Origin: Phycisphaerae bacterium
GTDB taxonomy: Bacteria > Planctomycetota > Phycisphaerae > UBA1845
NCBI GenBank assembly: GCA_046754265.1
Contig: JBHHVM010000001.1
Coordinates: 1 to 41,798 of the forward strand
Length of the DNA stretch: 41,798 bases
Direction: 5' to 3'
Shown: positions 7,104 to 31,128 of the stretch, piece by piece
How the letters are laid out: every line of letters starts with the position of its first letter
How positions within the stretch are numbered: the first letter of the stretch is position 1
Made by a program: the position numbers and the translations under genes
Notes under the pieces: model-generated
Seen by the model: only the letters and a program-made list of their open reading frames with translations
Told to the model about the DNA's origin: nothing
Databases searched by the model: none

Positions 7104-7445
7104 ATGGCGCCAACGAGGCAAATGGCCATGATCGACGAACAGCCAACGGATAACTGGCAAGACCCCTCAGATTTCAGATCGAGGGAATCCGACTTCCCGG
7201 TCCAAGGCGGCCGAATGCTCCTTGGCATCGAGCCAGAGGAATGGCCCAGCCCCTCGGGCGATGACCCGTCGGCAGACCCCGCCTGGGGCGCCAACCCGAC
7301 CATCCCATCGTGCTGGCTGATCGATGATGACGACTTGGGCGACGGGGATCTGATTGAAGACGACGAGGATGACCCGGACGAGGACGAGGATTCGGACGAC
7401 GATTTCCCGGATGATGATGAGGAGGAGGAAGACGACTTCCTTTAG
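7104..7445 (+). CDS. hypothetical protein with hyper-acidic C-terminal tail
   Basis: 113 aa. By my hand count, about two thirds of the last 42 residues are Asp/Glu (LIDDDDLGDGDLIEDDEDDPDEDEDSDDDFPDDDEEEEDDFL). Codon third positions are GC-rich. The competing minus-strand ORFs are Pro/Arg-rich mirror frames. Confidence 0.5.
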   Translation: MAPTRQMAMIDEQPTDNWQDPSDFRSRESDFPVQGGRMLLGIEPEEWPSPSGDDPSADPAWGANPTIPSCWLIDDDDLGDGDLIEDDEDDPDEDEDSDDDFPDDDEEEEDDFL

Positions 7446-7696
7446 GCGTTGCAGGCCCCGGGGTAGGGCGGTCCGCACCAGCAGGTCCAGGCAACACAGG
7501 CCGACGGCGGACCGGGACCACGGTTTCCCCGGTGACAGGTCCACTTCGGCCGCTCATTTGACCGATAAGCCTATAAGCCTGGTGACCTGGCGCAACCGAC
7601 GGAGGCGGGCTACCTGGCGGCAAGACGAAGCCATGATGCCGGTTGGGCCCGACGCGTCGGCCGGCCGAACGCATCGAACCGGTAAGGGTCCTCCCA

Positions 7697-8023
7697 ATGT
7701 CCGAGTCCCAACAGAATCCCGAACGCCGCCAATCTCCCGAAAAGCGCCGCCAGTCCACCGACCGGCGTCGGGGCCTGGACCGCCGCCGAGGCCCGGGCCG
7801 ACGCCGCGGGGATATCCGCCGCGACGCCGAAGAGGGGGAGATGACCGGCGAACTCTATGAGTTCGTCATGGCCATCGACGAGTACAAGCGGGTCAACAAC
7901 CGGCCTTTCCCCTCCTTTTCCGAGATCTTCGAGCTGGTCAAATACCTGGGCTACCGCAAGGTGGCCGAAAAGGCCGACCACATCAACGAACCCGAACAGG
8001 GCGATCTAAAAAGCGAAAACTGA
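7697..8023 (+). CDS. small conserved hypothetical protein, Arg-rich N-terminus with compact C-terminal domain
   Basis: Track ORF 7643-8023. The start is placed at ATG 7697 (MSESQQNPERRQSPEKRRQSTDRRRGLDRRRGPGRRRGDIRRD...). The C-terminal block ELYEFVMAIDEYKRVNNRPFPSFSEIFELVKYLGYRK looks like a folded domain. GC3 is strong. Confidence 0.6.
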   Translation: MSESQQNPERRQSPEKRRQSTDRRRGLDRRRGPGRRRGDIRRDAEEGEMTGELYEFVMAIDEYKRVNNRPFPSFSEIFELVKYLGYRKVAEKADHINEPEQGDLKSEN

Positions 8024-9295: not shown

Positions 9296-9532
9296 AGCCT
9301 TGGCGGAACGTTGGGGCCACACGCGCTGCCCGTGATCGGCGGCCAGATAAACTTTCACTGGAATAATTATGCGCTTATACGGGACACCAAGCCCGTCGAT
9401 GGTCAAGAACGGCGGGCCCCTGTTGAGTCATCGGCACCGAAAACCGGCGCAGGATTCGAGGCCCCACATCGAGGTGACCCGTCGGAAGCGGCCTCTCAGG
9501 GCCCGGATGAACCCGGATGTTGCCAAGGAGCC

Positions 9533-11056
9533 ATGCGGTTGACCACGGTCTGCGCTGAACACCTACCCGAAGCGGTAACTCAGTTCAATGAGATGTTGGA
9601 CCGGGCTGCCCGAGAGCTTTACCACCAGATCAACTACGTGGGCGACATTGCCGCGTCGGTAGAAGCCGTGGCCAGTTGCCTCAAGCCCGTCGAGGACGAC
9701 GGGCTCGATGCCGCTTTTGCAGACGTCAACAACGAGTTGATCCGGGTGGCCGGCACCGTGGTAGAGGGGTGCCGGGCGTCGTTGCAAGCGTGTCAGCGCA
9801 CCCATGGAATCCTGGCGGAGTCCATTGCCTCATTCGCTCAACTGCACTCAACGTTCGACCGTTTGACGCAAAGCAGCGAGAAGATCGAAGCGGTGGCTGA
9901 CACGATTGAGGAGTTCGCCGCCCAGACGAGTCTGTTGGCGCTCAACGCCCGGATCGAAGCCGCCCGGGCCGGCCAACACGGGCGCGGGTTTGCGGTGGTC
10001 AGCGAAGAGGTGGGCAAGTTGGCCCACCGCATCAAGACCGAATCGGACTCGATCCAGACGGCCGTGGAAGAGATTACGGGCTGCGTCTCCCAGGCCGGTG
10101 AGATGATCGCCGCAGAGGTCGACAGAAGTCACGAGCAGGAATCGGCCGTCGCGGCCATGATCGAAACCAACGAGCGACTGTTGGCTGATGGACGTTGCGT
10201 CCCGCAGATGGTCGAACGTCTGGACCAGTTCCTCGAACCGCTCGAGCGAGCCCGGGAAGCCATCAGTCACAACCAGATGGCCCGCGTGGCAGCGGCCAAC
10301 GTGGACCGCAACATCAAGAGCATCCATCGGGCCATCCGCCGGGCAGCACCCCAAGGTGCCGACCGTGGCAGTGGGGGTGGGCTCGTTTCGTTGGAGCAAT
10401 TCGTCGATCGATTTGCCGAGCAGCTTACCGAAGGGGTGGATCCTCCTATCGAGTCCATGCTCCAGGAACTCCTCGATACCGGTGCCTCCGGCGTGGAGTG
10501 CCTGGACGCCGTGGGCAAAGCCGTTCAAGCCGCCAACATGCGGCAGAAGCGCCGGCACGTCTCGGTGGGCGACTATTACCTGAACTATCTGGCTGTGGAG
10601 CGGGCGATTAGCCGGCTCAAAGACCGCCTCCCTTCAGCGCCGCAATCCGACATGAAAGTGGTCCTGGGCAACGCCCGGGGCGACTACCACAGCCTGGGTC
10701 GAGAGATGGTCGGGCTGTTTTTGCAGTCTTCGGGGATCGGGGTGATCGACGTCGGCCTGGGGGCCGAGGTGCCCACGTTCGTCGATGCCGTCGCCCGAAG
10801 TGGGGCCAAGGTGGTCGGAGTCTCGTCCTTGCTGGTGGAGTCCGCCAAGCAGATCACCGTCCTGCGCAGCGCCCTGAACCGGCGCGGGCTCGGTTCGGTC
10901 AAGATCGTGGCTGGTGGCGCCTGCTTCACGGTGGACCGCGAGTTCGCCTTTGAGGTCGGGGCCGATCACGTGGCCAGCGCCGCCAGCGACATCATCAACC
11001 TTGTCCAACGGGTTTACGGACACAGCCCATTGGTCTCGGGGGAGGCGTCGCGATGA
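9533..11056 (+). CDS. soluble methyl-accepting chemotaxis signalling domain fused to a C-terminal B12-binding (corrinoid) module
   Basis: Track ORF 9311-11056. The start is placed at ATG 9533, preceded by AAGGAG (9525-9530). The MCP hairpin-tip signature [41 protein letters not shown] lies at 9908-10030. The C-terminal Rossmann-like block [16 protein letters not shown]...VVGVSSLL...KIVAGGA carries a DxHxxG motif (10682-10699) and is preceded by a helical cap region. No TM, HAMP or PAS segment is visible. Confidence 0.8.
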
Positions 11057-12162
11057 ATTCCATTGAACGGGTCCTGGCGGCGCTAACCTTCGGCAAAGCA
11101 GCGCACGGTCCGCCCGATCGGGTGCCGGTTCTGCCGGTTCCGCTGATGCAGGGAGCGCTGGTCTGCGACTGCACGGTGGCTGAGTATTTCGCCATGCCCG
11201 CCGGGCGTATCGCGGAGGCCCAGACCCGCATCAACGAAATGTTCGACGGCATTCCCGACGGGGTGGCGGGTTTTCCACACGTTATCGAGGACGTGACCGC
11301 CTTCGGCGTGGAGTTGGTGCAACACTACCCCAACAGCACGCCAGCCATCGAAGGCATGAGGATCACCGACTTCGAGCAGATCGACGGCTTGAAATGCCCA
11401 TCACCGAAATCGTCCCCCACGCTCCGCAAGACGCTGGAGATCATCGCCCAGCTGGCCGGCGGCATCGGCGAGGAAAAACTGGTCATCGGGGCGGCCATCG
11501 CGCCGTTCAGCCTGCCCAGCATGTTGATGGGTACCTCCAAGTGGATGCGCCTGCTGTTTACCCCCGCGCTGCGAAACCGGTATTTCGAGCGGATCATGGA
11601 CACCTGCCAACGCTTTGTGGTCGATTGGGCCACGCTGCAGCTTCAGGCGGGGGCCCACGTGGTGGTGCTGGCCGACGGCATGGCCTCTGCCACCATGCTG
11701 CCCCGCAACACCTTCCAAGAATTCGCCTTCCCGGTGATCCGCAACACCATCGAGCAAATACAAGGGATGGTGGCTTATGAGGCGGTAGGTCGGATCGAAC
11801 CCCACGTCGATTTATGCGCCAACATCGGCGCAGTGGGCCTGCTGATCGGCCAAGAGGACGACATTGCCAACTGCAAGAAGAAACTGAACGGCCGAGCCGG
11901 CCTGATCGGCAACGTCAACAACTTGAAGATGCGCCGCTGGTCGCCCGCCCGAATCGAAATGCAGGCCAAGACCGCCCTAAAAGCCGGTGCCCCCGGGTTT
12001 GGTTTCGCCCTGGCAAATCAAGGCCCCGAGATTCCGTTCGACACGTCGCTGGACGGTATCGGAGCCCTGATCCGCGCCGTCGAAAAGTACGGCCGATACG
12101 ATCGCAACGTGGACGCAGACTCTGCCGCCCCGCCGCCGCGGCACCAAACCGTAGGCTGCTGA
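11053..12162 (+). CDS. uroporphyrinogen decarboxylase (URO-D) family protein, MtaA/CmuA-like methyltransferase fold
   Basis: 369 aa with ATGA overlap onto the preceding gene. The N-terminal [22 protein letters not shown], the central [14 protein letters not shown]...[12 protein letters not shown] and the C-terminal [19 protein letters not shown] blocks resemble URO-D/MtaA-family TIM barrels. Confidence 0.75.
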
Positions 12163-15481: not shown

Positions 15482-16978
15482 TCAGGCCAGGTTCATGGTC
15501 ATCAGGAACTCGGCGTTGGTTTTGGTCTTGGCCAATCGCCCGCTGAGCAGTTCCATGGCTTCGACCACGTTCATGTCGCTCAGCACGCGACGCAGGCGGT
15601 AGACCAGTTCCAACTCCTTGGGGTCCAGCAACCATTCCTCTTTGCGGGTGCCGCTGGCCGCCACGTCGATCGCCGGCCAAACTCGTTTTTCCACCAGACG
15701 GCGGTCCAGGTGCAACTCGCTGTTGCCGGTTCCTTTGAACTCCTCAAAGATGACCTCGTCCATCTTGGAGCCGGTGTCCACCAGGGCGGTGCCGATGATG
15801 GTCAGCGAGCCCCCTTCCTCCAACTTGCGGGCCGCCCCGAAGAACCGCTTGGGTTTTTGCAGGGCGTTGGCATCGACACCACCGGACAGGATTTTGCCCG
15901 AGTGGGGCACCTCGGTGTTGTAGGCCCGCGCCAAACGGGTGATGGAGTCCAGCAGGATGACCACGTCCTTGCCGTACTCGACCATGCGGCGGGCCTTTTC
16001 AATGACCATCTCGGTCACTTGAATGTGCCGCGCCGTCGGCTCGTCGAACGTGGAACTGACCACCTCGGCCATCGTGCTCCGCTCCATTTCGGTCACTTCC
16101 TCGGGCCGTTCGTCGATCAGCAGCACAAAGACGTAGGTCTCCGGATGGTTGCGAGCGATGGAATTGGCCATCTTGCGCAATAGCACGGTCTTGCCGGTAC
16201 GCGGCGGGGCCACGATCAGCATGCGCTGACCCTTGCCGATAGGCGTGACCAGGTCCACCACGCGCATGTTCAACTCGCCGGGCCCGGACTCCAGCAAGAG
16301 TCGGCCCTGCCCGGGATTGTCCTCATCGCCCGGGTGCAGCGGAGTGAGGTCCTCGAAGTTGGTCTTCTCGGTGACGCACTCGGGGTCCTCCAGGTTGATG
16401 GCCTCGACGCGCAGCAACGCGAAGTAGCGCTCGGATTCTTTGGGCGGGCGGATTTGGCCGGCCACCACGTGTCCGGTGCGCAACCCGAAGCGGCGAATTT
16501 GTGACGGCGACACATAGATGTCATCCGGACAAGGCAGGTAGTTGTACTCGGGTGAGCGCAGAAACCCGAAGCCGTCCGGCAGGATTTCCAACACGCCCTC
16601 GCCGTACATCAGCCCGTTCTTGTTGATCCGCTCTTTGAGGATCTTGAAGACCAGGTCCTGCTTTTTCAGGCCGGTGTATTCCTCCAAACCTTCGCCCTTG
16701 GCCACTTCGTGCAGCTCGGCGACGGTCATCTTCTGCAGTTCGGTGATGTGCGTGTCGCCGCGCTTGATCTCTTCATACTTGGCGTGGGTCTCGGCATCGA
16801 TGGCGGTGTCGCCGCTGCCGTCGCTCCCCCCGGGAGCACCGACCATTTGATCGAGGTCGACGCCGAAGTCATCGTCGGCCACTGCCACGTCACTCTTGGA
16901 AGCTTTGCTCTTGGTATCGACGGACGACTTGGCGGTCCGTTTCTTGGTGCCGGCCTTGCGTGTACTGGCCTTGGCCAT
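15482..16978 (-). CDS. rho: transcription termination factor Rho with about 75-aa N-terminal low-complexity extension
   Basis: Track ORF 15482-17164. The start is placed at ATG 16978 (MAKASTRK...) with AGGAGG 9 nt upstream. It aligns by eye with E. coli Rho: [37 protein letters not shown], Walker [29 protein letters not shown]. Confidence 0.95.
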
Positions 16979-17096
16979 GGAATGAATCCTCCTGCTGTTC
17001 TGCTGTTGGGGCCCCAACCTTCCAGGTCGGGTGTTCTGATTGCTTTGGGAAGGTCCCGATGGTCTTTCCAAACCCGGCTGAATCAAATCGGAAACG

Positions 17097-17723
17097 TTAG
17101 GTACCGGATGTTTCAGCGAGCAGAGTGGAAAGGAGACTTTTAACTTGGGAGCGTAGCTCGTCAAGCCCCGAATTGTTGACCACTATATGATCGGCCCTTG
17201 ACCTCTTGTTGTCCAGCGCTTCTTGCGACTTTTCTCGCTGCCGCCATTGGTGGGGCGTCCAGCCCCGCACCGCCTGGACCCGCCGGCAGCGATCCTCCTT
17301 AGAAGCCTCTACGAATATCACCACGTCGCACCGCCGGTCCAGACCCGTCTCAAACAGCAAAGGGCTGTCCAGCGCAACCGCCCGAATCTCGGGGTCGGCC
17401 TGGTACGCCTCGATCAAATCCTCGCGGCGTGCGGCTATCCGGGGATGGAGCAACCCCTCCACCCGATCTCGGGCTTCCGCGTCAGAGAAGATCACCCGGG
17501 CCAGGGCCCGGCGATCGATACAACCTGGCCGATCGCGAACAGATTCCCCAAACCACTCGACCAGCTTGGCCACAACTTCCGGACAGGCCAACGCCTCGCG
17601 GTTGAGCGCGTCGGAATCGATCACCCCAAGACCGCTCTCGGCGAGAATACTCGCCACGGTGGACTTGCCTGATCCGATCCCGCCAGCCAAGCCCAACACC
17701 AGCTTTCGCCGGCCTGTGGTCAC
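17097..17723 (-). CDS. coaE: dephospho-CoA kinase
   Basis: 208 aa with a GTG start. It has an N-terminal P-loop [13 protein letters not shown] followed by VIDSDAL, and the typical CoaE length and layout. Confidence 0.9.
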
Positions 17724-25505: not shown

Positions 25506-26975
25506 CTAAAACTTGAACGAGTATTGCACGTAAAACAGGTCCGGGTCCTCGCTCTTGCCCGAATTGATGATGAAATTGCTGTCCCAGAAGTGAGAATACC
25601 CCAGCAGCAGGGCCTGGTGTAGGTCGATCTTCCACACGACCGTCACGTCCACCTCGTGCCCGACCTCGGAGCCGCTGTTGCCGAAGGGATCGCGCCGCCC
25701 GGGTTTCCCCCCCGCGTTATACAGTGCGTCCCGATCGGCGTTAAGCCAAAACGCGTGGTAGGCCACGGCTGCCTTGACCTTTTTCTCCACGGGCCAGGCC
25801 GACAGATTGACGTTGACGGCCGTGATGTTCTGCCGCCCGATCAAATCCAGGAACCCCAAATACTTGTGCCCCAGGGGGAACAACTGATCGAACGTGCCCA
25901 CCTTGCCGTCCCGGGGGTCTTCATCGCCGCTGGCCCAGTCGAACCCCGCCCCCAGCCTCGGTTTCCAAGGCACCTGCTTGAAGGTGTAGCCGCCGTCAAC
26001 CGTCCAGCTCCACGCCTGGATGGTATGGCCCGCCCATCGGCCCCATTGACCGGCCAGTTCAGCCTCATAGTCCCACGGGCCCGTCTTGCCCCAGAATCGC
26101 GAGCCCAGCGTAAAGCGAGATTCGTCACCGACCTTCCCATTCGGGTTGCGGCGGCTGCCCGTCCGGTCGGTCGCGAAGAAATACACGTCGATGCCGTGCC
26201 GGGGAATGCCCTTGAATGTGAAATACGCCCCCCAGAAGTCGAACTGCTCGTCAAAGTCGTCCAGCTCCTCCCGCTTGACCACCACCGGCTTGACGTACCA
26301 GACGTCCAGCCTCCAGTCCTTGTCGGTCCAGAAAACTTTAACGCCATCGAACCGCCGGCGGACGTTGGCCCAATCCAGGGGCGACACCAACCGCTCGGTG
26401 CCGTACTGCAGCTCCTGCCGGCCAATCCGAACCGTCAGGTTGGTGTCGTTGCCGAACGGTTTGACGTCCAGGAAGAGCTGATGGATGTCGTAGCGGTTCT
26501 CGTCGATGCCACGCTTGGGCAGGCTGCGCTTCTCGTCCCAGGCGGCCACGCCCTGAAAAAAGACCCGCACAAAATCCTGGTACTTGAAATCGAAGTGCAC
26601 GAAGGAACGGTAAAGCTGAAACGTGTCCTGGGTGCGGGGGTTGGTGTCGAACGATTTGTTCGACTCGGCTTCCAGCCGGAAGCGGAGTTCCCCGCCGAGG
26701 CTCAGAATCAAATCATCGCCCAAGTGGATCCGTTTAATGGGATCAAAAAGGTCCTCTTTATACGAGCCGGGCGGACCGTCCAGATAGCTGAAATCATCGT
26801 CGTACCGCAGATTAAAGTATTTGGGGCCCGGCAACGGCTTTTCCGGTGCCGAGGCCTCCTTTCCAGAAGGTGGAGGAGCCCCATCCGGTGACGCCGGTTG
26901 GGCAAAAACCGGCTGACTGAGCCAGACAGCCAGCACGCCCACGGTCAAGACCCGTCGAATGCTTCGTGCAAACAT
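25506..26975 (-). CDS. alginate export (AlgE-like) family outer-membrane beta-barrel porin
   Basis: Track ORF 25506-27215. The start is placed at ATG 26975 (MFARSIRRVLTVGVLAVWLSQPVFAQP, a signal peptide). The family-typical block is RIGRQELQYGTERLVSPLDWANVRRRFDGVKVFW. The sequence is aromatic-rich with alternating beta strands and a terminal F. Confidence 0.8.
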   Translation of the reverse strand: MFARSIRRVLTVGVLAVWLSQPVFAQPASPDGAPPPSGKEASAPEKPLPGPKYFNLRYDDDFSYLDGPPGSYKEDLFDPIKRIHLGDDLILSLGGELRFRLEAESNKSFDTNPRTQDTFQLYRSFVHFDFKYQDFVRVFFQGVAAWDEKRSLPKRGIDENRYDIHQLFLDVKPFGNDTNLTVRIGRQELQYGTERLVSPLDWANVRRRFDGVKVFWTDKDWRLDVWYVKPVVVKREELDDFDEQFDFWGAYFTFKGIPRHGIDVYFFATDRTGSRRNPNGKVGDESRFTLGSRFWGKTGPWDYEAELAGQWGRWAGHTIQAWSWTVDGGYTFKQVPWKPRLGAGFDWASGDEDPRDGKVGTFDQLFPLGHKYLGFLDLIGRQNITAVNVNLSAWPVEKKVKAAVAYHAFWLNADRDALYNAGGKPGRRDPFGNSGSEVGHEVDVTVVWKIDLHQALLLGYSHFWDSNFIINSGKSEDPDLFYVQYSFKF

Positions 26976-27217
26976 GGTTGTGCTCTCTTGTGGGTTGGAA
27001 ACTGTCACCGCCTCAACCCGGCTGGCTCGAACCGCTCGGGCAACGCCGGGCCGCCGCCAAGGCGGCGCAACCTGGTTTCTATCTTCGGGCAAACCGGGCG
27101 AAATGCTCCACTTTTGGGACACCCTCGCGCCCTGATTCGACCGGAATCCCTCTGCCGATCGGCCTCCTTCAGCCAAATCGGCTTGGGTTTCTTGATAAGC
27201 CCTTACTCCCAACACTG

Positions 27218-28042
27218 TCAGCCTCCGCTGGATCGCTTGGCGGCCACCATGACAACGGCTGACAGGTGATCGTGATAGGCTTGAAGCACCCGCCGCATGG
27301 CCAGCACGCGCCGCCGGGCATCGCCGTGCGTCAGCACGTTGAACAGGAACCGCGCCGTTCCCGCCAACCCTTCGTCGCGCAAAATCCGCCCCGGCTCCAA
27401 CAGGTGCATCGGCGCCGTAGACTGGGCGCTCACTTCAAGATCGTGGGCTTCGAGCAACGCTCGCCAGCCCGAAGGCGTCAACGGCTGGACTGCGTGCCGA
27501 ATCTGGCCGGTCAATTCCCGAGCGATTTCCGCCTGGAGCGACTCGGCTGCGTCATCCGGCGTCACCGCCATCTCGTGAATCGCGTACCGCCCGCCCGATT
27601 TCAGCAGCCGGGCTGCCTCGGCCACGATCCGGTGCTTGATCGAGGCGGCGTGCATGGTCAGCATGGCTTCGCCGTAGACCACCGTGGCGCAGGCGGCCTC
27701 CAGGCCGCTGGCCTGGGCTCGGCCCACTACGCACCGGCAGTTCCCTTCTCTCAACAAGCGCCCCATTCGCTGGGCAGCCTCTGGATCGCCTTCCACAGCC
27801 GTGTACTGGGCCGGGTGCCGCTGGAGGGTCATTCGGGCAGTCGCCCCCATCCCCGGGGCAAACTCCACCACCTGGTCATCCCGGCCGATGTCCAGCGTCT
27901 CCAGCATCCGGCGGGTCAGCTCGATCCCTCCCGGGCGCAACACTTTCTTGCCCAACCGGGCCAGCACCCAATGGCCCGGCGCTTTGTCGGTCGGCGCCCC
28001 GTGACCAAAGTCCGGCGGTTTGTGCTCAGTTTGAGCGTGCAT
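27218..28042 (-). CDS. class I SAM-dependent methyltransferase
   Basis: Track ORF 27218-28072. I prefer ATG 28042, which lies 5 nt after the octahaem stop and has AGGA upstream. Motif I is VVEFAPGMGATA, and the post-I/II blocks resemble Methyltransf_11/25 proteins. The substrate is unknown. Confidence 0.7.
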   Translation of the reverse strand: MHAQTEHKPPDFGHGAPTDKAPGHWVLARLGKKVLRPGGIELTRRMLETLDIGRDDQVVEFAPGMGATARMTLQRHPAQYTAVEGDPEAAQRMGRLLREGNCRCVVGRAQASGLEAACATVVYGEAMLTMHAASIKHRIVAEAARLLKSGGRYAIHEMAVTPDDAAESLQAEIARELTGQIRHAVQPLTPSGWRALLEAHDLEVSAQSTAPMHLLEPGRILRDEGLAGTARFLFNVLTHGDARRRVLAMRRVLQAYHDHLSAVVMVAAKRSSGG

Positions 28043-28047
28043 GAATC

Positions 28048-29640
28048 CTATTCCGAAGCTTCGCCCTGCCATTTATGCTCGGGCCGGGCCAGGATCCCGT
28101 CAATGACCGCTTCCACCGCGTCGGCCTGGGCGGTCTGACCCGCCTGGCGGGCGTGCTCGGCAATCTCGCGGGCCTCGGGGATCAACTCCTGATAAAAGCG
28201 CTCCGCCACTTCGTACATCCCGTGCCAATGGGCATAGTCCGGCGCCATCATCGACGCTCCGTGTCGGGCCCGCCGACCTTCGTGATGCCACAGATAGAAC
28301 CAGGTCCACTCGATCTTCTCGTCGAAGCTGGCCTTGGTGATCAGACCCTGTCTTCGCAGGGCGCCCATGATCAATTGGCCGGGCTTGGCGAATTTCTCGT
28401 TGTAGAGCACGACCAGATCGTCGTACTGCTGGTAGAACGACGTGATGTAATCCGGCGTGTGGCAGTGCATGCACACGTCACTCATCCGGCTGCGCTTGTC
28501 CTGCCAGGTGTCGGTCACCAGGGCCCGGCGCTTGGCGGGGTCGGTTTCCTTGATGACGTGGTGATCCTTGTCGGTGTCCATCGCCAGGCTGACGGGGGGC
28601 CTGTTGGTCCAACTGATCCGCGTGCCGGGGTTGTGCGTGATTTGACCGCCGTTGCGCATGTGCCCCGACATGTGGCAGGTCGCGCAGGTGGGGGCTTGCG
28701 AATAGTCCTGCCCGAGGATCCAGGTTTCGCCGTCCAAGTGCATTTGATCCTTGAGGTCGCGGTAGGCCACGCCGTGCTTGGACTCTTCGTAGATTTCCTT
28801 CTGCGGGTGGTCGGGCCCCAGGTGGCACTTGCCGCAGTTTTCCGGGCGGCGGGCCCGCCGCGGCGAAAAGTCGTGCCGGCTGTGACAGGCCGAGCACGAT
28901 CCCCGCGACCCGTCCAGGTTCAGTCGGCCGATCCCGGTGTTGGGCCAGGTGCCGGGGTGATACTTGGGCTTGCCCTGGCCGTCTTTGAGTACTCGGTCCA
29001 CCGCCTCGGCGTTGGTCGGTCGGCCATCGCCGTCGGGCTTGAGATCGTCCACGCTGATCATGCCGCCGTCGGTGCCTTGCAGGGCCACCTTGCTACCGTG
29101 ACATTGCTTGCAACCGACCGTTGCGCTGGCCCGTCCGTTGACTTGCTTGACGCCCGGTCTGCCCGGCGTGGGCGAATGCGGCGCAAAGGGCTCTCGAGCG
29201 CCCTCCACCACCTCAGCCAGGAAATTGTCCAGCGATGCCAGAATGTTGCCGGCGGCTGCGTGGTGGCTGGCCTCGAACTCCTGGGCCTCGCGAGGATGGC
29301 ACCCGGAGCAATCCCTGGGCGTGACCACCGTGGCGATATGGACGCCGTAGTGCTCAAACCCATCCACGTCCCCTTTTTTGGCCTGGTGACATTCCACACA
29401 GGCGACGCCCTTGCGGGCGTGGGTGCTGGCCTTCCAGTGATCCACGATGCCGGGGCTTGACTGGGCGTGGCACTCGATGCAATCCCGGCTCGCTTCGGGC
29501 ACCATGGCCAACACCGTGGAGAGCGGTCTCTCGGCCGGCGGCAGGTGTTTGCGGGACTCCATCTCAGCCACCATGATCAGGGCCACGCACAGGGCGATGC
29601 CCAGGATGAAGACGACGATACGTTTAGTGTTCAAGGACAT
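28048..29640 (-). CDS. membrane-anchored octahaem cytochrome c, hydroxylamine oxidoreductase (HAO)-like family
   Basis: 530 aa with an N-terminal TM helix (IVVFILGIALCVALIMVA). There are exactly eight CxxCH motifs (CIECH, CVECH, CSGCH, CKQCH, CSACH, CGKCH, CATCH, CMHCH). The blocks CSACHSRHDFS...CGKCHLGPDHPQKEIYEESKHG and WHHEGRRARHGASMMAPDY are ones I recognise as HAO/epsilon-HAO-like. Confidence 0.85.
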   Translation of the reverse strand: MSLNTKRIVVFILGIALCVALIMVAEMESRKHLPPAERPLSTVLAMVPEASRDCIECHAQSSPGIVDHWKASTHARKGVACVECHQAKKGDVDGFEHYGVHIATVVTPRDCSGCHPREAQEFEASHHAAAGNILASLDNFLAEVVEGAREPFAPHSPTPGRPGVKQVNGRASATVGCKQCHGSKVALQGTDGGMISVDDLKPDGDGRPTNAEAVDRVLKDGQGKPKYHPGTWPNTGIGRLNLDGSRGSCSACHSRHDFSPRRARRPENCGKCHLGPDHPQKEIYEESKHGVAYRDLKDQMHLDGETWILGQDYSQAPTCATCHMSGHMRNGGQITHNPGTRISWTNRPPVSLAMDTDKDHHVIKETDPAKRRALVTDTWQDKRSRMSDVCMHCHTPDYITSFYQQYDDLVVLYNEKFAKPGQLIMGALRRQGLITKASFDEKIEWTWFYLWHHEGRRARHGASMMAPDYAHWHGMYEVAERFYQELIPEAREIAEHARQAGQTAQADAVEAVIDGILARPEHKWQGEASE

Positions 29641-29652
29641 CGATGCATACCC

Positions 29653-31128
29653 TCACACCATCGCCTCCCAGACCGTAAAGGCCAGGAAGGTCACAAAGGT
29701 CACGATTCCGACATAGACTCCCAGGTCCTTGCCCGGGGCGATTTTTTCCAAGAGGGCATCAGCCCAGGGCCAGGCCACGATCAAAGCCAGCATCAACCCG
29801 CTCAGCAGCACAGCCGTTTTCAAGCCCATCAGCTTCAGCAGGCGGAACTGGAAGAAGAAATACCACTCCGGCTTGATGTGTTCGGGGGTCAGCAGCGGGT
29901 TGGCTTTCTCACCCATCTCGGCGGGGAAGACCAGCGACAGCAAGGTCAGCAGGAACAGCAGCAGCGTTCCGATCATCACCTCGGTCAGAAGATGATCCGG
30001 GAAGAAGTTGAAGGGCCGATCTTCACCCCGCCCTTCGTGAAATCGGTGGTGACGGGCCGCTCCATAGACCACCGTCAACGCCAGCACCACGGCCGCCACC
30101 ATCCACAACACCGTGTTGGCCGCCTCGTGATGGACCAGGTCGAAGATCAGCTTGCCCAATGCCAGAATGCTGACGAACAGCCAGATCAACAACCCGTAGT
30201 AATGCCCCTTAAACAGCAGCACCGAACCGGTAGCGATCACCACGGCTGCGATGGCCCAGAATATCCGGCTGCCCTCCAGCGTCAGGTCGTGGCCGATCAC
30301 GTTGACAGGTTGGAGGTTCAGGGCAGCCATTAACGCACAGCCCAGGGCGACTACCGCAGCCAGCAGTGCCATTATCCTGACACCGGGCAACCGATGGGCG
30401 GGCCTGCGCTGACCGGGCTCGGTGCCGGTGGGCGTATGCACGAAGGAAAGCTCCGACACGCCGTGGATACGCAGCACGGCAATATGCATGCCGATCAGCA
30501 GAATGATCAGCACCGGCAAGATGCCCACGTGCAGATTGAACATTCGCGTCAGCGTGTTGGGGCCTATCTCGCTGCCGCCGCGCATGAAGGTGGCCAGCGC
30601 CTCGCCAACAACCGGGACCGACGCGGTCAGCTCCGTGGCGACGGTGATGCCCCAATAGCTGAGCTGCTCGTAGATCAGCGAATACCCCGTAAAGCCCATG
30701 GTCAGCGTGACCAGCAACAGGCACACGCCGAGGATCCAGTTCAGTTGCCGCGGGTGCCGAAACGCGCACGAGAAGAAGACTCGGGACATGTGCAGGATGA
30801 CCGTGATGATCATCAAGTTGCCGGCCCATTTGTGGACGCTACGCAGGAACCAGCCGAAAGGCACGACCCGCGTGATGGCATCGACGCTCTCGTAGGCCCG
30901 ATCGGCCGAGGGCACGTAATAGAACGCCAGCAGGATGCCGGTCGTGATTTGAATCAAGAATAGATAGGCCGGCGTTCCCCCCAGGGCGAACCACCACCGC
31001 TTGATGTGCCCCGGGACCGGTTCGTTGGTGACCTCCTCGACCTTGCCCCAATCGACCGGCAGCAACTGCCAAAGCCGGCCGCCGGAGCTTCGGGTAGACG
31101 ACGGGCCCGGCCTGGCGGGTTCAACCAT
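29653..31128 (-). CDS. cytochrome b (b6-type) fused to subunit IV, with an internal multi-helix insertion
   Basis: 491 aa that aligns by eye with cytochrome b6 (WFALGG...FGWFLRSVHKWAGNLMIITVILH...GYSL...YWG...RGG...TLTR). The His pairs are H99/H113 and H200/H215. The PEWY Qo motif lies at residues 419-422 (29860-29871). About 110 extra residues with four hydrophobic helices lie between the two parts. Confidence 0.9.
   Translation of the reverse strand: MVEPARPGPSSTRSSGGRLWQLLPVDWGKVEEVTNEPVPGHIKRWWFALGGTPAYLFLIQITTGILLAFYYVPSADRAYESVDAITRVVPFGWFLRSVHKWAGNLMIITVILHMSRVFFSCAFRHPRQLNWILGVCLLLVTLTMGFTGYSLIYEQLSYWGITVATELTASVPVVGEALATFMRGGSEIGPNTLTRMFNLHVGILPVLIILLIGMHIAVLRIHGVSELSFVHTPTGTEPGQRRPAHRLPGVRIMALLAAVVALGCALMAALNLQPVNVIGHDLTLEGSRIFWAIAAVVIATGSVLLFKGHYYGLLIWLFVSILALGKLIFDLVHHEAANTVLWMVAAVVLALTVVYGAARHHRFHEGRGEDRPFNFFPDHLLTEVMIGTLLLFLLTLLSLVFPAEMGEKANPLLTPEHIKPEWYFFFQFRLLKLMGLKTAVLLSGLMLALIVAWPWADALLEKIAPGKDLGVYVGIVTFVTFLAFTVWEAMV

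Follow-up and report, generated by a model that had tools for sequence, protein, structure and literature searches.

Two adjacent genes in a Phycisphaerae contig may form a sensory cassette. A soluble protein of 507 amino acids, in which a chemoreceptor (MCP) hairpin is joined to a C-terminal B12-binding corrinoid module, is the product of the first (9533–11056). The second encodes a URO-D-fold protein resembling MtaA. There is about an even chance that the two work together as a sensor, i.e., that the partner writes the state of the corrinoid and the receptor reports either the ratio of methyl donor to methyl acceptor or redox. The likely signal is the methylation or redox state of the corrinoid, as set by the partner. 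Together with the operons of its relatives, the cassette suggests that bacteria monitor their own chemistry by a B12-based route that has not been described before.

Cytoplasmic chemoreceptors are common, and the signals of few of them are known. To our knowledge, B12 domains serve as light sensors in transcription factors and have not been known as inputs for chemotaxis. Full-text literature searches, which extended to DUF1638 and to corrinoid proteins with histidine kinases, found no published account of such a system, in agreement with the first-pass annotation of this DNA, which knew of no characterised example.

The receptor gene and its product

The window, i.e., the whole stretch of DNA that was analysed, is 41,798 nucleotides long; the features of the two genes are collected in Table 1. 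The reading frame of the receptor is open from a TTG codon at 9311 to 11056. The TTG was rejected as the start codon: it would add an extension of 74 amino acids that is absent from orthologues, whereas the ATG at 9533 agrees with the N-termini of orthologues and has AAGGAG upstream. The ATGA shared by the two genes had been recorded in the first-pass annotation and was seen again, together with a GGAGG within the end of the receptor gene. The overlap suggests translational coupling, and an overlap of 4 bp or 1 bp is found in most orthologous loci. A scan for promoters and terminators was uninformative, and Rfam models detected no riboswitch in the window or in five loci. The window had been described as having no che genes, and none was found among the approximately 50 ORFs scanned there, nor in the 6–10 kb flanks of homologous loci.

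Table 1. Features of the receptor–partner cassette, with nucleotide positions in the window
Feature	Position	Strand	Basis and remarks
AAGGAG, Shine-Dalgarno-like	9525..9530	+	Direct sequence reading; precedes ATG at 9533
MCP–corrinoid fusion gene	9533..11056	+	ORF list, PF00015 + PF02310, orthologues, AF2; stop codon included
N-terminal hairpin arm	9554..9967	+	Residues 8–145; AF2 helices 8–54 and 57–145
Hairpin tip, signalling subdomain	9908..10030	+	Residues 126–166 (41 residues)
C-terminal hairpin arm	9971..10345	+	Residues 147–271; AF2 helices 147–231 and 234–271
Variable linker	10346..10390	+	Residues 272–286; pLDDT <50 at 276–281; probably disordered
Four-helix cap, B12-binding_2-like	10391..10627	+	Residues 287–365; AF2, TIGR02370 alignment, motif Q338...Y349-x-N351
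B12-binding Rossmann domain	10652..11014	+	Residues 374–494; PF02310; DxHxxG, SxL, GG
GGAGG, ribosome-binding site of URO-D-like gene	11041..11045	+	Direct sequence reading; within end of receptor gene
ATGA stop/start overlap of receptor and URO-D-like genes	11053..11056	+	ORF list, direct sequence reading
URO-D-fold, MtaA-like gene	11053..12162	+	369 amino acids; without zinc ligands; PF01208; MtaA 4AY7 match

That a single ORF unites an MCP signature with a C-terminal B12 module was borne out by Pfam, with MCPsignal (PF00015) at residues 100–246 (89.7 bits, cut-off 34.6) and B12-binding (PF02310) at residues 374–480 (60.3 bits, cut-off 32.1). Thus, the N-terminal part scores well above the MCPsignal threshold. 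In the AF2 model (pLDDT 88.5), the order of the parts is hairpin, linker, cap and Rossmann fold. The arms of the hairpin are helical, as had been proposed, but their lengths are 138 and 125 amino acids rather than approximately 125 and 150. From arm length only, the heptad class is estimated to be approximately 36H. The hairpin matches TM1143 and Tsr in the PDB, both by sequence and by Foldseek. Within the tip, N138, E142, G150 and F153 do not vary across 68 sequences from two clades that share 21–26% identity; per-segment comparison showed that the distal N-terminal arm (residues 20–50) is as conserved as the tip. The tip appears to be canonical and of the kind that binds CheA and CheW. The protein was correctly described as lacking transmembrane, HAMP and PAS regions: the maximum Kyte-Doolittle value for a 19-residue window is 1.43, and Pfam gave no HAMP or PAS match. 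In a search for canonical CheR/CheB methylation sites, no column of the 68 sequences had more than one instance of the consensus [ASTG][ASTG]xx[EQ][EQ]xx[ASTG][ASTG].

The segment around the linker (residues 272–290) has the lowest conservation of all segments. Since the linker varies between orthologues and its predicted state is disordered, rigid helical coupling between hairpin and sensor is not expected. The helical cap that had been placed before the B12 domain is formed by four AF2 helices (287–299, 306–315, 320–341 and 345–365). The domain architecture that had been suggested was PF00015 with PF02607 and PF02310; the first and last of these were found, whereas PF02607 had no match in the receptor at E ≤ 1, and it is the TIGR02370 alignment (residues 309–486) and the AF2 model that show the cap. 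Q338 and Y349 of the cap are invariant in the 68 sequences.

The DxHxxG motif is DYHSLG (residues 384–389; 10682–10699). Its histidine, H386, on whose conservation in orthologues the earlier proposal depended, is invariant, as are D384, G389, S431, L433, G461 and G462, both in the orthologue alignment and in the 68 sequences. These residues indicate that the receptor has the Asp-His-Ser triad of base-off/His-on corrinoid proteins. The top Foldseek matches of the B12 domain are 4JGI, MttC and the cobalamin domain of MetH. In NCBIfam, the receptor scored 58.4 bits against TIGR02370 (cut-off 215.3), 68.6 against MtgC_2 (370) and 59.5 against MtbC (350). Judged by sequence, its B12 module resembles the corrinoid proteins of methyltransferase systems more closely than it resembles CarH.

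The URO-D-like partner

The partner matches PF01208 with 127.9 bits, and MtaA (4AY7) was the sole match in a PDB sequence search. The His/Cys/Cys zinc ligands of MtaA are E/V/F in the partner: in the alignment, the HxC of MtaA lies opposite E-A-V, and the CG of APGCG opposite FG. The zinc site is conserved in no tier of the partner's relatives. The partner falls below all NCBIfam cut-offs, with 79.6 bits against TIGR01463 (cut-off 235.4) and 93.1 against PRK06252 (cut-off 244). Identity as HemE was rejected, as TIGR01464 gave only 40.1 bits against a cut-off of 302.95. Identity as a canonical MtaA or MtbA was also rejected, because the three zinc ligands are missing, and the scores are far under the MtaA/CmuA cut-offs. 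Thus, the part of the first-pass annotation that called this protein URO-D/MtaA-like holds for the fold and for MtaA as the closest known protein, and does not extend to a canonical MtaA/MtbA.

Natural fusions of cap, B12 domain and URO-D domain were found among relatives. One such fusion was modelled with a pTM of 0.84, the only measure of the docking geometry in the model; the best match of its barrel is MtaA 4AY7 (TM 0.86).

Conservation and spread of the cassette

The query was aligned with 31 full-length receptor orthologues of 49–99% identity. An exhaustive search of 1.84 billion representatives gave 32 clusters of the full-length receptor family at 50% clustering, and the Bacillota-type clade of the receptor comprises 46 clusters. 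The cassette occurs in Planctomycetota, cultured Bacillaceae, KSB1 and Eubacteriales. The earlier suggestion to test conservation of the PF01208 neighbour had a clear outcome: a URO-D gene is immediately 3′ of the receptor gene in 36/36 distinct loci, whose flanks are unrelated and vary from locus to locus. An assembly or frameshift artefact was rejected as the origin of the fusion, which is collinear in all 36 of these loci as well as in the 32 clusters formed at 50% identity. When all loci scanned are considered, a corrinoid gene is followed directly by a zinc-less URO-D-like gene in 78 of 80, including every MCP fusion. Pairwise identities of the B12 module and of the partner are correlated (r = 0.91 in a Mantel test, a value reached by none of 500 permutations); such co-divergence of adjacent genes is also expected from plain co-inheritance.

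When all neighbouring ORFs of 87 loci were clustered, no conserved neighbour other than the pair and antisense ORFs emerged in the MCP-fused tier, and no che, RamA or MT1 genes emerged. Likewise, MT1 and a RamA-type activase were absent from the scanned ORFs of the window and from the annotated neighbours of homologous loci. Nor is a riboswitch for cobalamin, or a gene for its transport or biosynthesis, found with the cassette. Genes connected with terminal oxidases lie near some cassettes: cydAB (L009), cytochrome bd with cytochrome c (L010) and cbb3 maturation genes (L002).

Relatives with other signalling outputs

The closest stand-alone relatives of the pair are corrinoid and URO-D genes in operons, and in 37/49 of these loci they are followed by a gene for a DUF1638–histidine kinase or a DUF1638–GGDEF protein. 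All 38 loci of the MCP-fused and intermediate kinds lack a DUF1638-like ORF, and clustering of neighbouring ORFs showed DUF1638 proteins to recur in the stand-alone tier only. DUF1638 operons are present in Methylobacter, Geobacter, Desulfobacterales, Clostridium, Anaerolineae, Methanolobus and Thermosipho; relatives of the corrinoid/URO-D pair also occur in Syntrophomonadaceae. These operons resemble the cassette in having a homologous corrinoid module (approximately 35% identity) and a URO-D-like protein (approximately 30%) in the same gene order, and in tying the pair to a signalling output. They differ in that the output is a separate protein starting with DUF1638, whereas in the receptor the MCP is fused and DUF1638 is lacking, and in the residue at cap position 338, which is W in the operons but Q in the receptor.

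The DUF1638 of the stand-alone operons has conserved cysteines. DUF1638 is also genetically linked to a cap–B12 protein in split MetH (Price et al. 2018, PMC5764234). A role in the reductive recharging of B12 has been presumed for it (PMC12478193). Because the stand-alone relatives precede DUF1638–kinase or DUF1638–GGDEF genes, the corrinoid/URO-D pair can be read as a general sensory input, which in the window would be wired to chemotaxis. The idea that the state of the corrinoid is the signal, put forward when the DNA was first annotated, gains independent support from these operons.

A possible mechanism

Given its DxHxxG motif, the receptor would bind a cobamide via H386. The URO-D-like protein would dock on the cobalt face and displace the cap, as the methyltransferase modules do in MtaABC and MetH, and may then load or strip the upper (methyl) ligand, with a small molecule as the donor or acceptor. 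Docking and ligand exchange are supported by the strict co-occurrence of the two genes, by their co-divergence and by the natural cap–B12–URO-D fusion. The relative amounts of six-coordinate methyl-Co(III) and of Co(I)/Co(II), demethylated or oxidised, would reflect the ratio of methyl donor to acceptor, or redox. The accompanying change in cap and Rossmann fold would shift the packing of the sensor on the conserved distal end of the hairpin, and altered packing could in turn bias the control of CheA at the tip. Since there is a single linked methyltransferase, with no enzyme for a second half-reaction and no annotated activase nearby, the corrinoid would be a reporter and not a shuttle. The MCP fusion would be the chemotaxis version of the input that feeds DUF1638–histidine kinase and DUF1638–GGDEF outputs elsewhere. 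Some features count against the cassette being a sensor of this kind: the variable linker, the lack of a conserved CheR/CheB consensus and of linked RamA, MT1 and che genes, and, from its sequence, a partner without the zinc ligands of MtaA that scores under all NCBIfam cut-offs.

A broader proposal is more tentative, and is somewhat more probably wrong than right: an enzyme that writes the state of a cobamide would be a widespread and unrecognised input, with MCP, DUF1638–histidine kinase and DUF1638–GGDEF proteins as its outputs. If so, the three outputs would be chemotaxis, a two-component phosphorelay and the synthesis of c-di-GMP. The chemoreceptor would be methyl-accepting on its cofactor instead of on glutamates, and cells would swim up or down gradients of methyl donor or acceptor, or of redox potential.

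Comparison with known systems

Soluble chemoreceptors with cofactor or metal sensors include TlpD of H. pylori (C-terminal CZB), Aer2 (PAS-haem) and HemAT (globin). Like these, the receptor is a cytoplasmic MCP without transmembrane segments, has a prosthetic-group domain as its input and keeps the tip consensus; with TlpD it also shares the placement of the sensor, behind the C-terminal hairpin arm. Unlike these, it has a cap and Rossmann corrinoid sensor and no HAMP or PAS, no domain precedes the hairpin at its N-terminus, and a gene for a dedicated enzyme is always attached.

The best sequence and structure matches come from the methyltransferase corrinoid systems, i.e., MtaC/MtaA, MtbC/MtbA, MtgC and MttC (4AY7, 7XCN, 4JGI, 1Y80). 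The four-helix cap and the His-on Rossmann fold with DxHxxG, SxL and GG are shared with them, and the partner has the fold of MtaA. However, receptor and partner miss every family-specific cut-off, the His/Cys/Cys zinc site is absent, MT1 and a RamA activase are missing from the linked genes, the module forms one protein with an MCP, and Q338, Y349 and N351 replace the customary aromatic or aliphatic residues of the cap. The cobalamin domain of MetH has the same Asp-His-Ser triad, and its cap must shift before other modules reach the cobalt; the cassette differs in lacking the homocysteine, folate and reactivation modules and in its context, which is signalling and not biosynthesis. CarH, AerR/PpaA and the photocobilins (8J2W–8J2Y) also use a B12 module of this fold as the input of a signalling protein, whereas the receptor has neither a DNA-binding nor a photoglobin domain and has an obligatory partner.

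Genes for a histidine kinase, for a corrinoid protein and for proteins of the URO-D fold also occur together in the mec dichloromethane cluster (PMC9768040). It was rejected as the same system, because it is catabolic and has several methyltransferases and a PocR kinase.

Alternative explanations

It is unlikely, though by no means negligibly so, that the cassette is a redox or oxygen sensor for energy taxis. The signal would then arise when Co(I)/Co(II) is oxidised or when oxidants remove the methyl group, and the URO-D-like protein would merely restore the methylated resting state; this explanation overlaps with the cassette reading and differs in the stimulus. The oxygen sensitivity of Co(I)/Co(II) is established chemistry of MetH and corrinoid proteins, and the carriers include Bacillaceae and Planctomycetota, groups known as aerobes or facultative anaerobes. 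The oxidase genes near three cassettes are in keeping with such a sensor, but these neighbours vary between loci. The conserved cysteines of DUF1638 and its presumed role in recharging B12 (PMC12478193) are also in keeping with it, although the genes linked to the cassette include no reductive activase.

Light had been offered as another stimulus in the first-pass annotation, and phototaxis is now quite improbable. Light would photolyse the upper Co–C bond of AdoCbl or MeCbl, as it does in CarH, AerR and photocobilins, after which the URO-D-like enzyme would bring back the dark state. B12 domains fused to further outputs have been anticipated (PMC10979010), and the cap and Rossmann fold are those of B12 photoreceptors, with photocobilin 8J2Y as a sequence match (46 bits) and CarH, AerR and 8JBS as Foldseek matches. 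However, the W-x9-E-H of CarH and photocobilins is replaced by Q338...Y348-Y349, a substitution that is invariant in the family (the W of 8J2Y aligns opposite Q338 and its E-H opposite Y348-Y349), and the CarH NCBIfam model gives the receptor 16 bits, compared with 58–69 for MtgC, MtbC and TIGR02370. Phototaxis would also leave the obligatory MtaA-like partner unexplained, and relatives of the pair are found in Methanolobus, Thermosipho, Syntrophomonadaceae and Desulfobacterales, which are taken to dwell in dark anoxic habitats.

It is very doubtful that the pair is a metabolic corrinoid methyltransferase, with the MCP coiled coil as a scaffold for dimerisation or localisation, or as a relic. 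A cap–B12 protein and a URO-D-fold enzyme are indeed parts of catabolic methyltransferase systems, and the flexible linker and the lack of nearby che genes and of methylation sites would suit a receptor that does not signal. However, a mere scaffold needs no tip that is invariant between clades at 21–26% identity, the one linked methyltransferase is not joined by the MT1, MT2 and activase that would complete a pathway, and relatives of the pair have histidine kinases and GGDEF proteins as their outputs.

A sensor of cobalamin availability, in which the apo or holo state of the B12 domain would steer cells toward B12 or cobamide producers, is highly improbable: the domain does occupy the sensor position and many Planctomycetota and Bacillaceae rely on external cobamides, but a cytoplasmic receptor would sense internal rather than external B12, the strictly conserved enzyme would have no role, and no cobalamin riboswitch, transporter or biosynthesis gene accompanies the cassette.

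Implications and cultured carriers

In the cassette reading, the sensor probably has a dedicated enzyme that modifies its cofactor, a logic distinct from that of a ligand which binds reversibly. In many anaerobes, in methanotrophs and in one methanogen, histidine kinases and diguanylate cyclases are attached to homologues of the pair; the cassette could thus explain a class of unannotated signalling operons, and solving it could assign a function to DUF1638. As cultured carriers are available, the question is open to direct test. They include Bacillus marasmi (WP_147535426.1), Calidifontibacillus erzurumensis (WP_173730160.1) and Anaerobacillus sp. MEB173 (WP_441421630.1), as well as species of Niallia and Neobacillus. 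The public labels of the receptors are "cobalamin-dependent protein" or "methylmalonyl-CoA mutase cobalamin-binding chain", in which the receptor part has been overlooked.

The chemoreceptor and its domain layout

The open reading frame of the receptor could begin as far upstream as a TTG codon (see table); however, AAGGAG precedes the ATG at 9533 and the orthologous proteins begin at the equivalent of this ATG, so the protein is taken to be 507 amino acids long. In Pfam, residues 100–246 match MCPsignal with 89.7 bits, well above the cut-off of 34.6, and residues 374–480 match B12-binding with 60.3 bits (cut-off 32.1). These scores, and an AlphaFold2 model built on a 68-sequence alignment (mean pLDDT 88.5), confirm what the first-pass annotation had read from the DNA, i.e., an MCP hairpin and a C-terminal B12 module in a single open reading frame.

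In the model, the hairpin comprises helices 8–54 and 57–145 and, after a turn at residue 146, helices 147–231 and 234–271, followed by a linker of low confidence (residues 272–286) and by four cap helices (residues 287–365) ahead of the Rossmann fold. Both helical arms of the annotation are present, at lengths of 138 and 125 residues rather than the approximately 125 and 150 first noted. The annotated tip string corresponds to residues 126–166 and the DYHSLG motif to residues 384–389. The expected helical cap before the B12 domain is borne out by the cap helices and by TIGR02370, which aligns to residues 309–486, although PF02607 gives no score in Pfam. The annotation had also seen no TM, HAMP or PAS region, and this holds: the Pfam scan yielded neither HAMP nor PAS nor any further sensor domain, and the highest 19-residue Kyte–Doolittle mean (1.43) lies within the Rossmann domain, so that the receptor has no membrane segment.

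Features of the receptor cassette and of homologous loci (L-numbers, loci compared; P-number, homologous protein)
Feature	Location	Strand	Evidence or remark
Receptor ORF, open frame	9311 (TTG)–11056	+	ORF list
AAGGAG before ATG 9533	9525–9530	+	Sequence read
URO-D-like gene	11053–12162	+	URO-D 127.9 bits
Single-chain cap-B12-URO-D fusion P0235	L009 8001–9734		AF2 pTM 0.84
cydAB	L009 10270–12715		0.5 kb 3′ of single-chain fusion
cbb3 maturation genes (FixG, FixH, FixS, FixP domains and P-type ATPase)	L002 15351–21500		Pfam
Cytochrome bd with cytochrome c	L010 11745–14122		
Intermediate form, cap-B12 without MCP, then URO-D-like gene	L039 4028–7657; L038 14–2792		Planctomycetota
Corrinoid + URO-D-like + DUF1638-HK/GGDEF operons	L043 5929–10862; L079 5752–9429; L090 284–3392		34 more among L042–L090

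The hairpin and its conservation

Judged by sequence, the tip is a canonical chemoreceptor tip: across 68 sequences drawn from two clades with 21–26% mutual identity, N138, E142, G150 and F153 do not vary. The best solved matches of the receptor half are TM1143 and Tsr. With about 125 paired residues in each arm, the hairpin would suit a receptor of the 36-heptad type, which is our estimate and not a formal classification. No conserved CheR/CheB consensus site was detected in the receptor family.

Within the planctomycete clade, the distal N-terminal stretch (residues 20–50) and the distal C-arm (residues 229–271) match the tip in conservation, the commonest-residue fractions for residues 20–50, the tip and the C-arm being 0.65, 0.67 and 0.67, respectively. 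Conservation drops in mid-arm (0.47–0.53) and is lowest of all in the linker (0.30). Thus, the sensor-side end of the hairpin appears to be a functional surface, and the tether no rigid signal wire. In line with the annotation, no che gene was found among the approximately 50 window ORFs scanned, nor in flanks of 6–10 kb at the homologous loci. Motility and chemotaxis are known in Bacillaceae and in many Planctomycetota.

The corrinoid module

Residues D384, H386, G389, S431, L433, G461 and G462 are invariant in the family, including the His of the DxHxxG motif on which the annotation had relied; with D384, H386 and S431, the Asp-His-Ser triad of base-off/His-on proteins is complete. Although under each curated cut-off, the module is by profile closer to the methyltransferase corrinoid proteins (MtgC 68.6, MtbC 59.5, TIGR02370 58.4 bits) than to MetH (42.8 bits), the mutases (methylaspartate mutase subunit S, 41.6 bits) or CarH (16.1 bits). 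The best solved sequence matches are the Moorella corrinoid protein 1Y80, MttC (7XCN) and the Desulfitobacterium protein 4JGI, with photocobilin 8J2Y fourth, and Foldseek ranks the structure matches in the same order.

When aligned to 8J2Y, the photoreceptor motif W-x9-E-H of the CarH-type cap falls on Q338 and Y348-Y349 of the receptor family, whereas the usual methyl-carrier cap has F at position 338 (in 1Y80). Since Q338 and Y349 are invariant and N351 nearly so in the 68 fusion proteins, the cap has its own signature, neither that of CarH nor that of the usual methyl carriers.

The URO-D-fold partner

The receptor and partner genes overlap by ATGA, with GGAGG eight bases 5′ of the partner start, which upholds the translational coupling first noted. 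The only solved sequence relative of the partner is MtaA of Methanosarcina mazei (4AY7, E = 4e-12), and among NCBIfam models it lies nearest to MtaA/CmuA and distant from HemE, with no cut-off reached. The MtaA zinc ligands, His-x-Cys and Cys, align to E-A-V and F in the partner, and no branch of the subfamily conserves these ligands. Invariant in the subfamily are R6, D22-R23-x-P25, Y45, Q57, D69, PFSLPxMxxG (151–160), W192, D208, S212, GNxN (286–289), W296 and E326-I-P328. As the zinc ligands are absent throughout, the partner is predicted to be an MtaA-like barrel that is unable to activate a thiol in the manner of MtaA. The MtaA-like label of the annotation is therefore right as to nearest relative, but the ligands are replaced and the cut-offs missed.

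Several homologues are natural single-chain cap-B12-URO-D fusions of 577–586 amino acids (P0235, P0169, P0185, P0223). The tabulated AF2 model reached its pTM even though some 30 residues of linker are disordered, and its barrel superposes on MtaA with TM 0.86. Across 63 loci, pairwise identities of module and partner correlate with r = 0.91, a value reached by none of 500 label permutations; this shows, at the level of sequence, that the two are inherited as a unit, the correlation alone being no proof of physical contact.

Recurrence of the fusion

A word-indexed search returned 31 full-length orthologues (49–99% identity), all with PF00015 and PF02310, the named ones belonging to Phycisphaerales, Planctomycetales and Pirellulales. 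On six long contigs the URO-D gene lies directly 3′, mostly with the identical 4-bp overlap, and the flanks differ in each. With the URO-D protein as query, a second tier (39–47% identity) was found in Bacillota, Anaerolineae and Omnitrophica; on two of its contigs, a gene for MCPsignal plus B12-binding (506–516 aa) is directly upstream of URO-D, and these fusions are 23–24% identical to the window protein and collinear with it end to end.

This second, Bacillota-type fusion clade comprises 46 clusters at 90% identity. From a scan of one genome per species, further named carriers of the fusion are Bacillus marasmi, B. rubiinfantis, B. dakarensis, Bacillus sp. DNRA2, Neobacillus paridis, Niallia oryzisoli, N. 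endozanthoxylica, Calidifontibacillus erzurumensis, Anaerobacillus sp. MEB173, one KSB1 MAG and one Eubacteriales MAG. When a profile was run against the complete set of 1.84 billion 50%-identity representatives, 32 full-length members were obtained (at least 284 bits, 492–556 aa), below which scores fall to 239 bits or less, i.e., to stand-alone corrinoid proteins and generic MCPs. The URO-D gene, overlapping by 4 bp, is likewise present in a member of a further clade, of high GC content. In total, the URO-D gene is immediately 3′ of the fusion in 36 of 36 distinct loci, which settles the conservation of this neighbour and excludes an assembly or frameshift artefact.

The receptors are named "cobalamin-dependent protein" at NCBI (as is the Bacillota-type clade) and "methylmalonyl-CoA mutase cobalamin-binding domain/chain" at JGI, so that name-based censuses of chemoreceptors would miss the family. 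Homologues whose public names hide the receptor part include P0241, P0260, P0272, P0006 and P0257.

Relatives with other outputs

A genome scan with two B12-domain peptide motifs also picked up stand-alone corrinoid proteins of approximately 210 amino acids, encoded at 49 loci in Methylobacter, Geobacter, Desulfobacterales, Clostridium, Anaerolineae, Nitrospirae, Methanolobus and Thermosipho, among other carriers. Directly 3′ of the corrinoid gene, 47 of these loci have a URO-D-like gene (approximately 30% identical). Among 20 large genes flanking such pairs, 15 encode an N-terminal DUF1638 followed by an output: HisKA/HATPase_c in ten, frequently with PAS and receiver domains, and GGDEF in five. 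A further GGDEF protein, that of locus L087, lacks DUF1638 in Pfam, yet matches the locally built DUF1638 model. With a profile made from these N-terminal domains, a DUF1638-type gene was found right after URO-D in 37 of the 49 loci (21 kinases, nine cyclases, seven short or untyped) and in none of the 38 loci with an MCP fusion or intermediate form.

The intermediate proteins (282–286 aa) come from two planctomycete loci. Just upstream of the L039 pair is a Ser/Thr kinase gene (Pfam), with which the upstream ORF of L038 clusters; Ser/Thr kinases may be a fourth kind of output. By neighbour-joining, the MCP-fused modules, the intermediates and the URO-D fusion form a single clade, apart from the stand-alone tier.

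We know of no function for DUF1638. In the kinases and cyclases, C12 is invariant and C40 and C90 are nearly so (14 domains, including L043 7617–8276; alignment A5), and these cysteines hint at a metal or Fe-S site. In Phaeobacter, where methionine synthase is split, methionine synthesis requires a DUF1638 gene that adjoins the cap-B12 gene of this enzyme, and DUF1638 co-occurs with a RamA-like activase (PMC5764234); it is presumed to aid cobalamin recharging (PMC12478193). The pattern is complementary, in that an output protein either carries DUF1638 or is itself fused to the corrinoid module. On this pattern, DUF1638 appears to be an adaptor which reads the corrinoid protein, and in the window protein the fusion appears to take its place.

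Proposed mechanism and alternatives

Relatives of the pair are thus attached to three kinds of output: chemoreceptor, histidine kinase and GGDEF cyclase. The window protein belongs to a real, conserved family of chemoreceptors that have a corrinoid sensor and an MtaA-like partner of their own, best filed among the cofactor-based cytoplasmic chemoreceptors. A search of open-access papers and bioRxiv found no earlier description of this architecture or of the DUF1638 operons, so far as those sources go. There is a substantial chance that the family is part of a widespread and new class of systems which sense the state of a corrinoid.

In MetH and corrinoid proteins, state-dependent movement of cap and Rossmann domains is established. 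In the receptor, the partner barrel would dock on the cobalt face and add or remove the upper methyl ligand, and the two domains would be moved as the cobalt switches between methyl-Co(III) and Co(I)/Co(II). The movement would alter packing of the sensor on the conserved distal hairpin and hence the control of CheA. With only a single linked methyltransferase, and no nearby enzyme found for the other half-reaction, the corrinoid would act as a reporter rather than a shuttle. What the receptor responds to could be a methyl donor or acceptor; alternatively, redox state or oxygen could act on the cobalt. We regard the chances of this model as a whole as evenly balanced.

That redox or oxygen is the stimulus is unlikely. 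Terminal-oxidase genes near some cassettes (see table) hint weakly at a tie to respiration or oxygen, being unconserved across loci. The light sensor offered by the first-pass annotation is improbable and is disfavoured by the missing W-x9-E-H motif, the low CarH score, the obligatory enzyme partner and the occurrence of relatives in Methanolobus, Thermosipho and Syntrophomonadaceae, regarded here as anaerobes of dark habitats. A purely metabolic role for the pair, in which the MCP serves as scaffold, is very unlikely, leaving unexplained both the invariant tip and the kinase and cyclase relatives. Least credible is a sensor of B12 availability, in which the enzyme would be without a role; Rfam detected no riboswitch near the cassette.

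Other features of the window

At 25506–31128 (−), genes for an Alginate_exp-type outer-membrane porin, a SAM methyltransferase, a multihaem cytochrome c and a cytochrome b follow one another; they probably form a respiratory module and have no connection with the receptor. Two small ORFs 5′ of an M20 peptidase gene, 7104–7445 (+) and 7643–8023 (+), have no Pfam match and are uncertain as genes; the former ends in a D/E-rich tail of about 45 residues and the latter has an Arg-rich start. The Rho termination factor encoded at 15482–17164 (−; 560 aa) carries an extension of about 140 residues ahead of its Rho_N domain.
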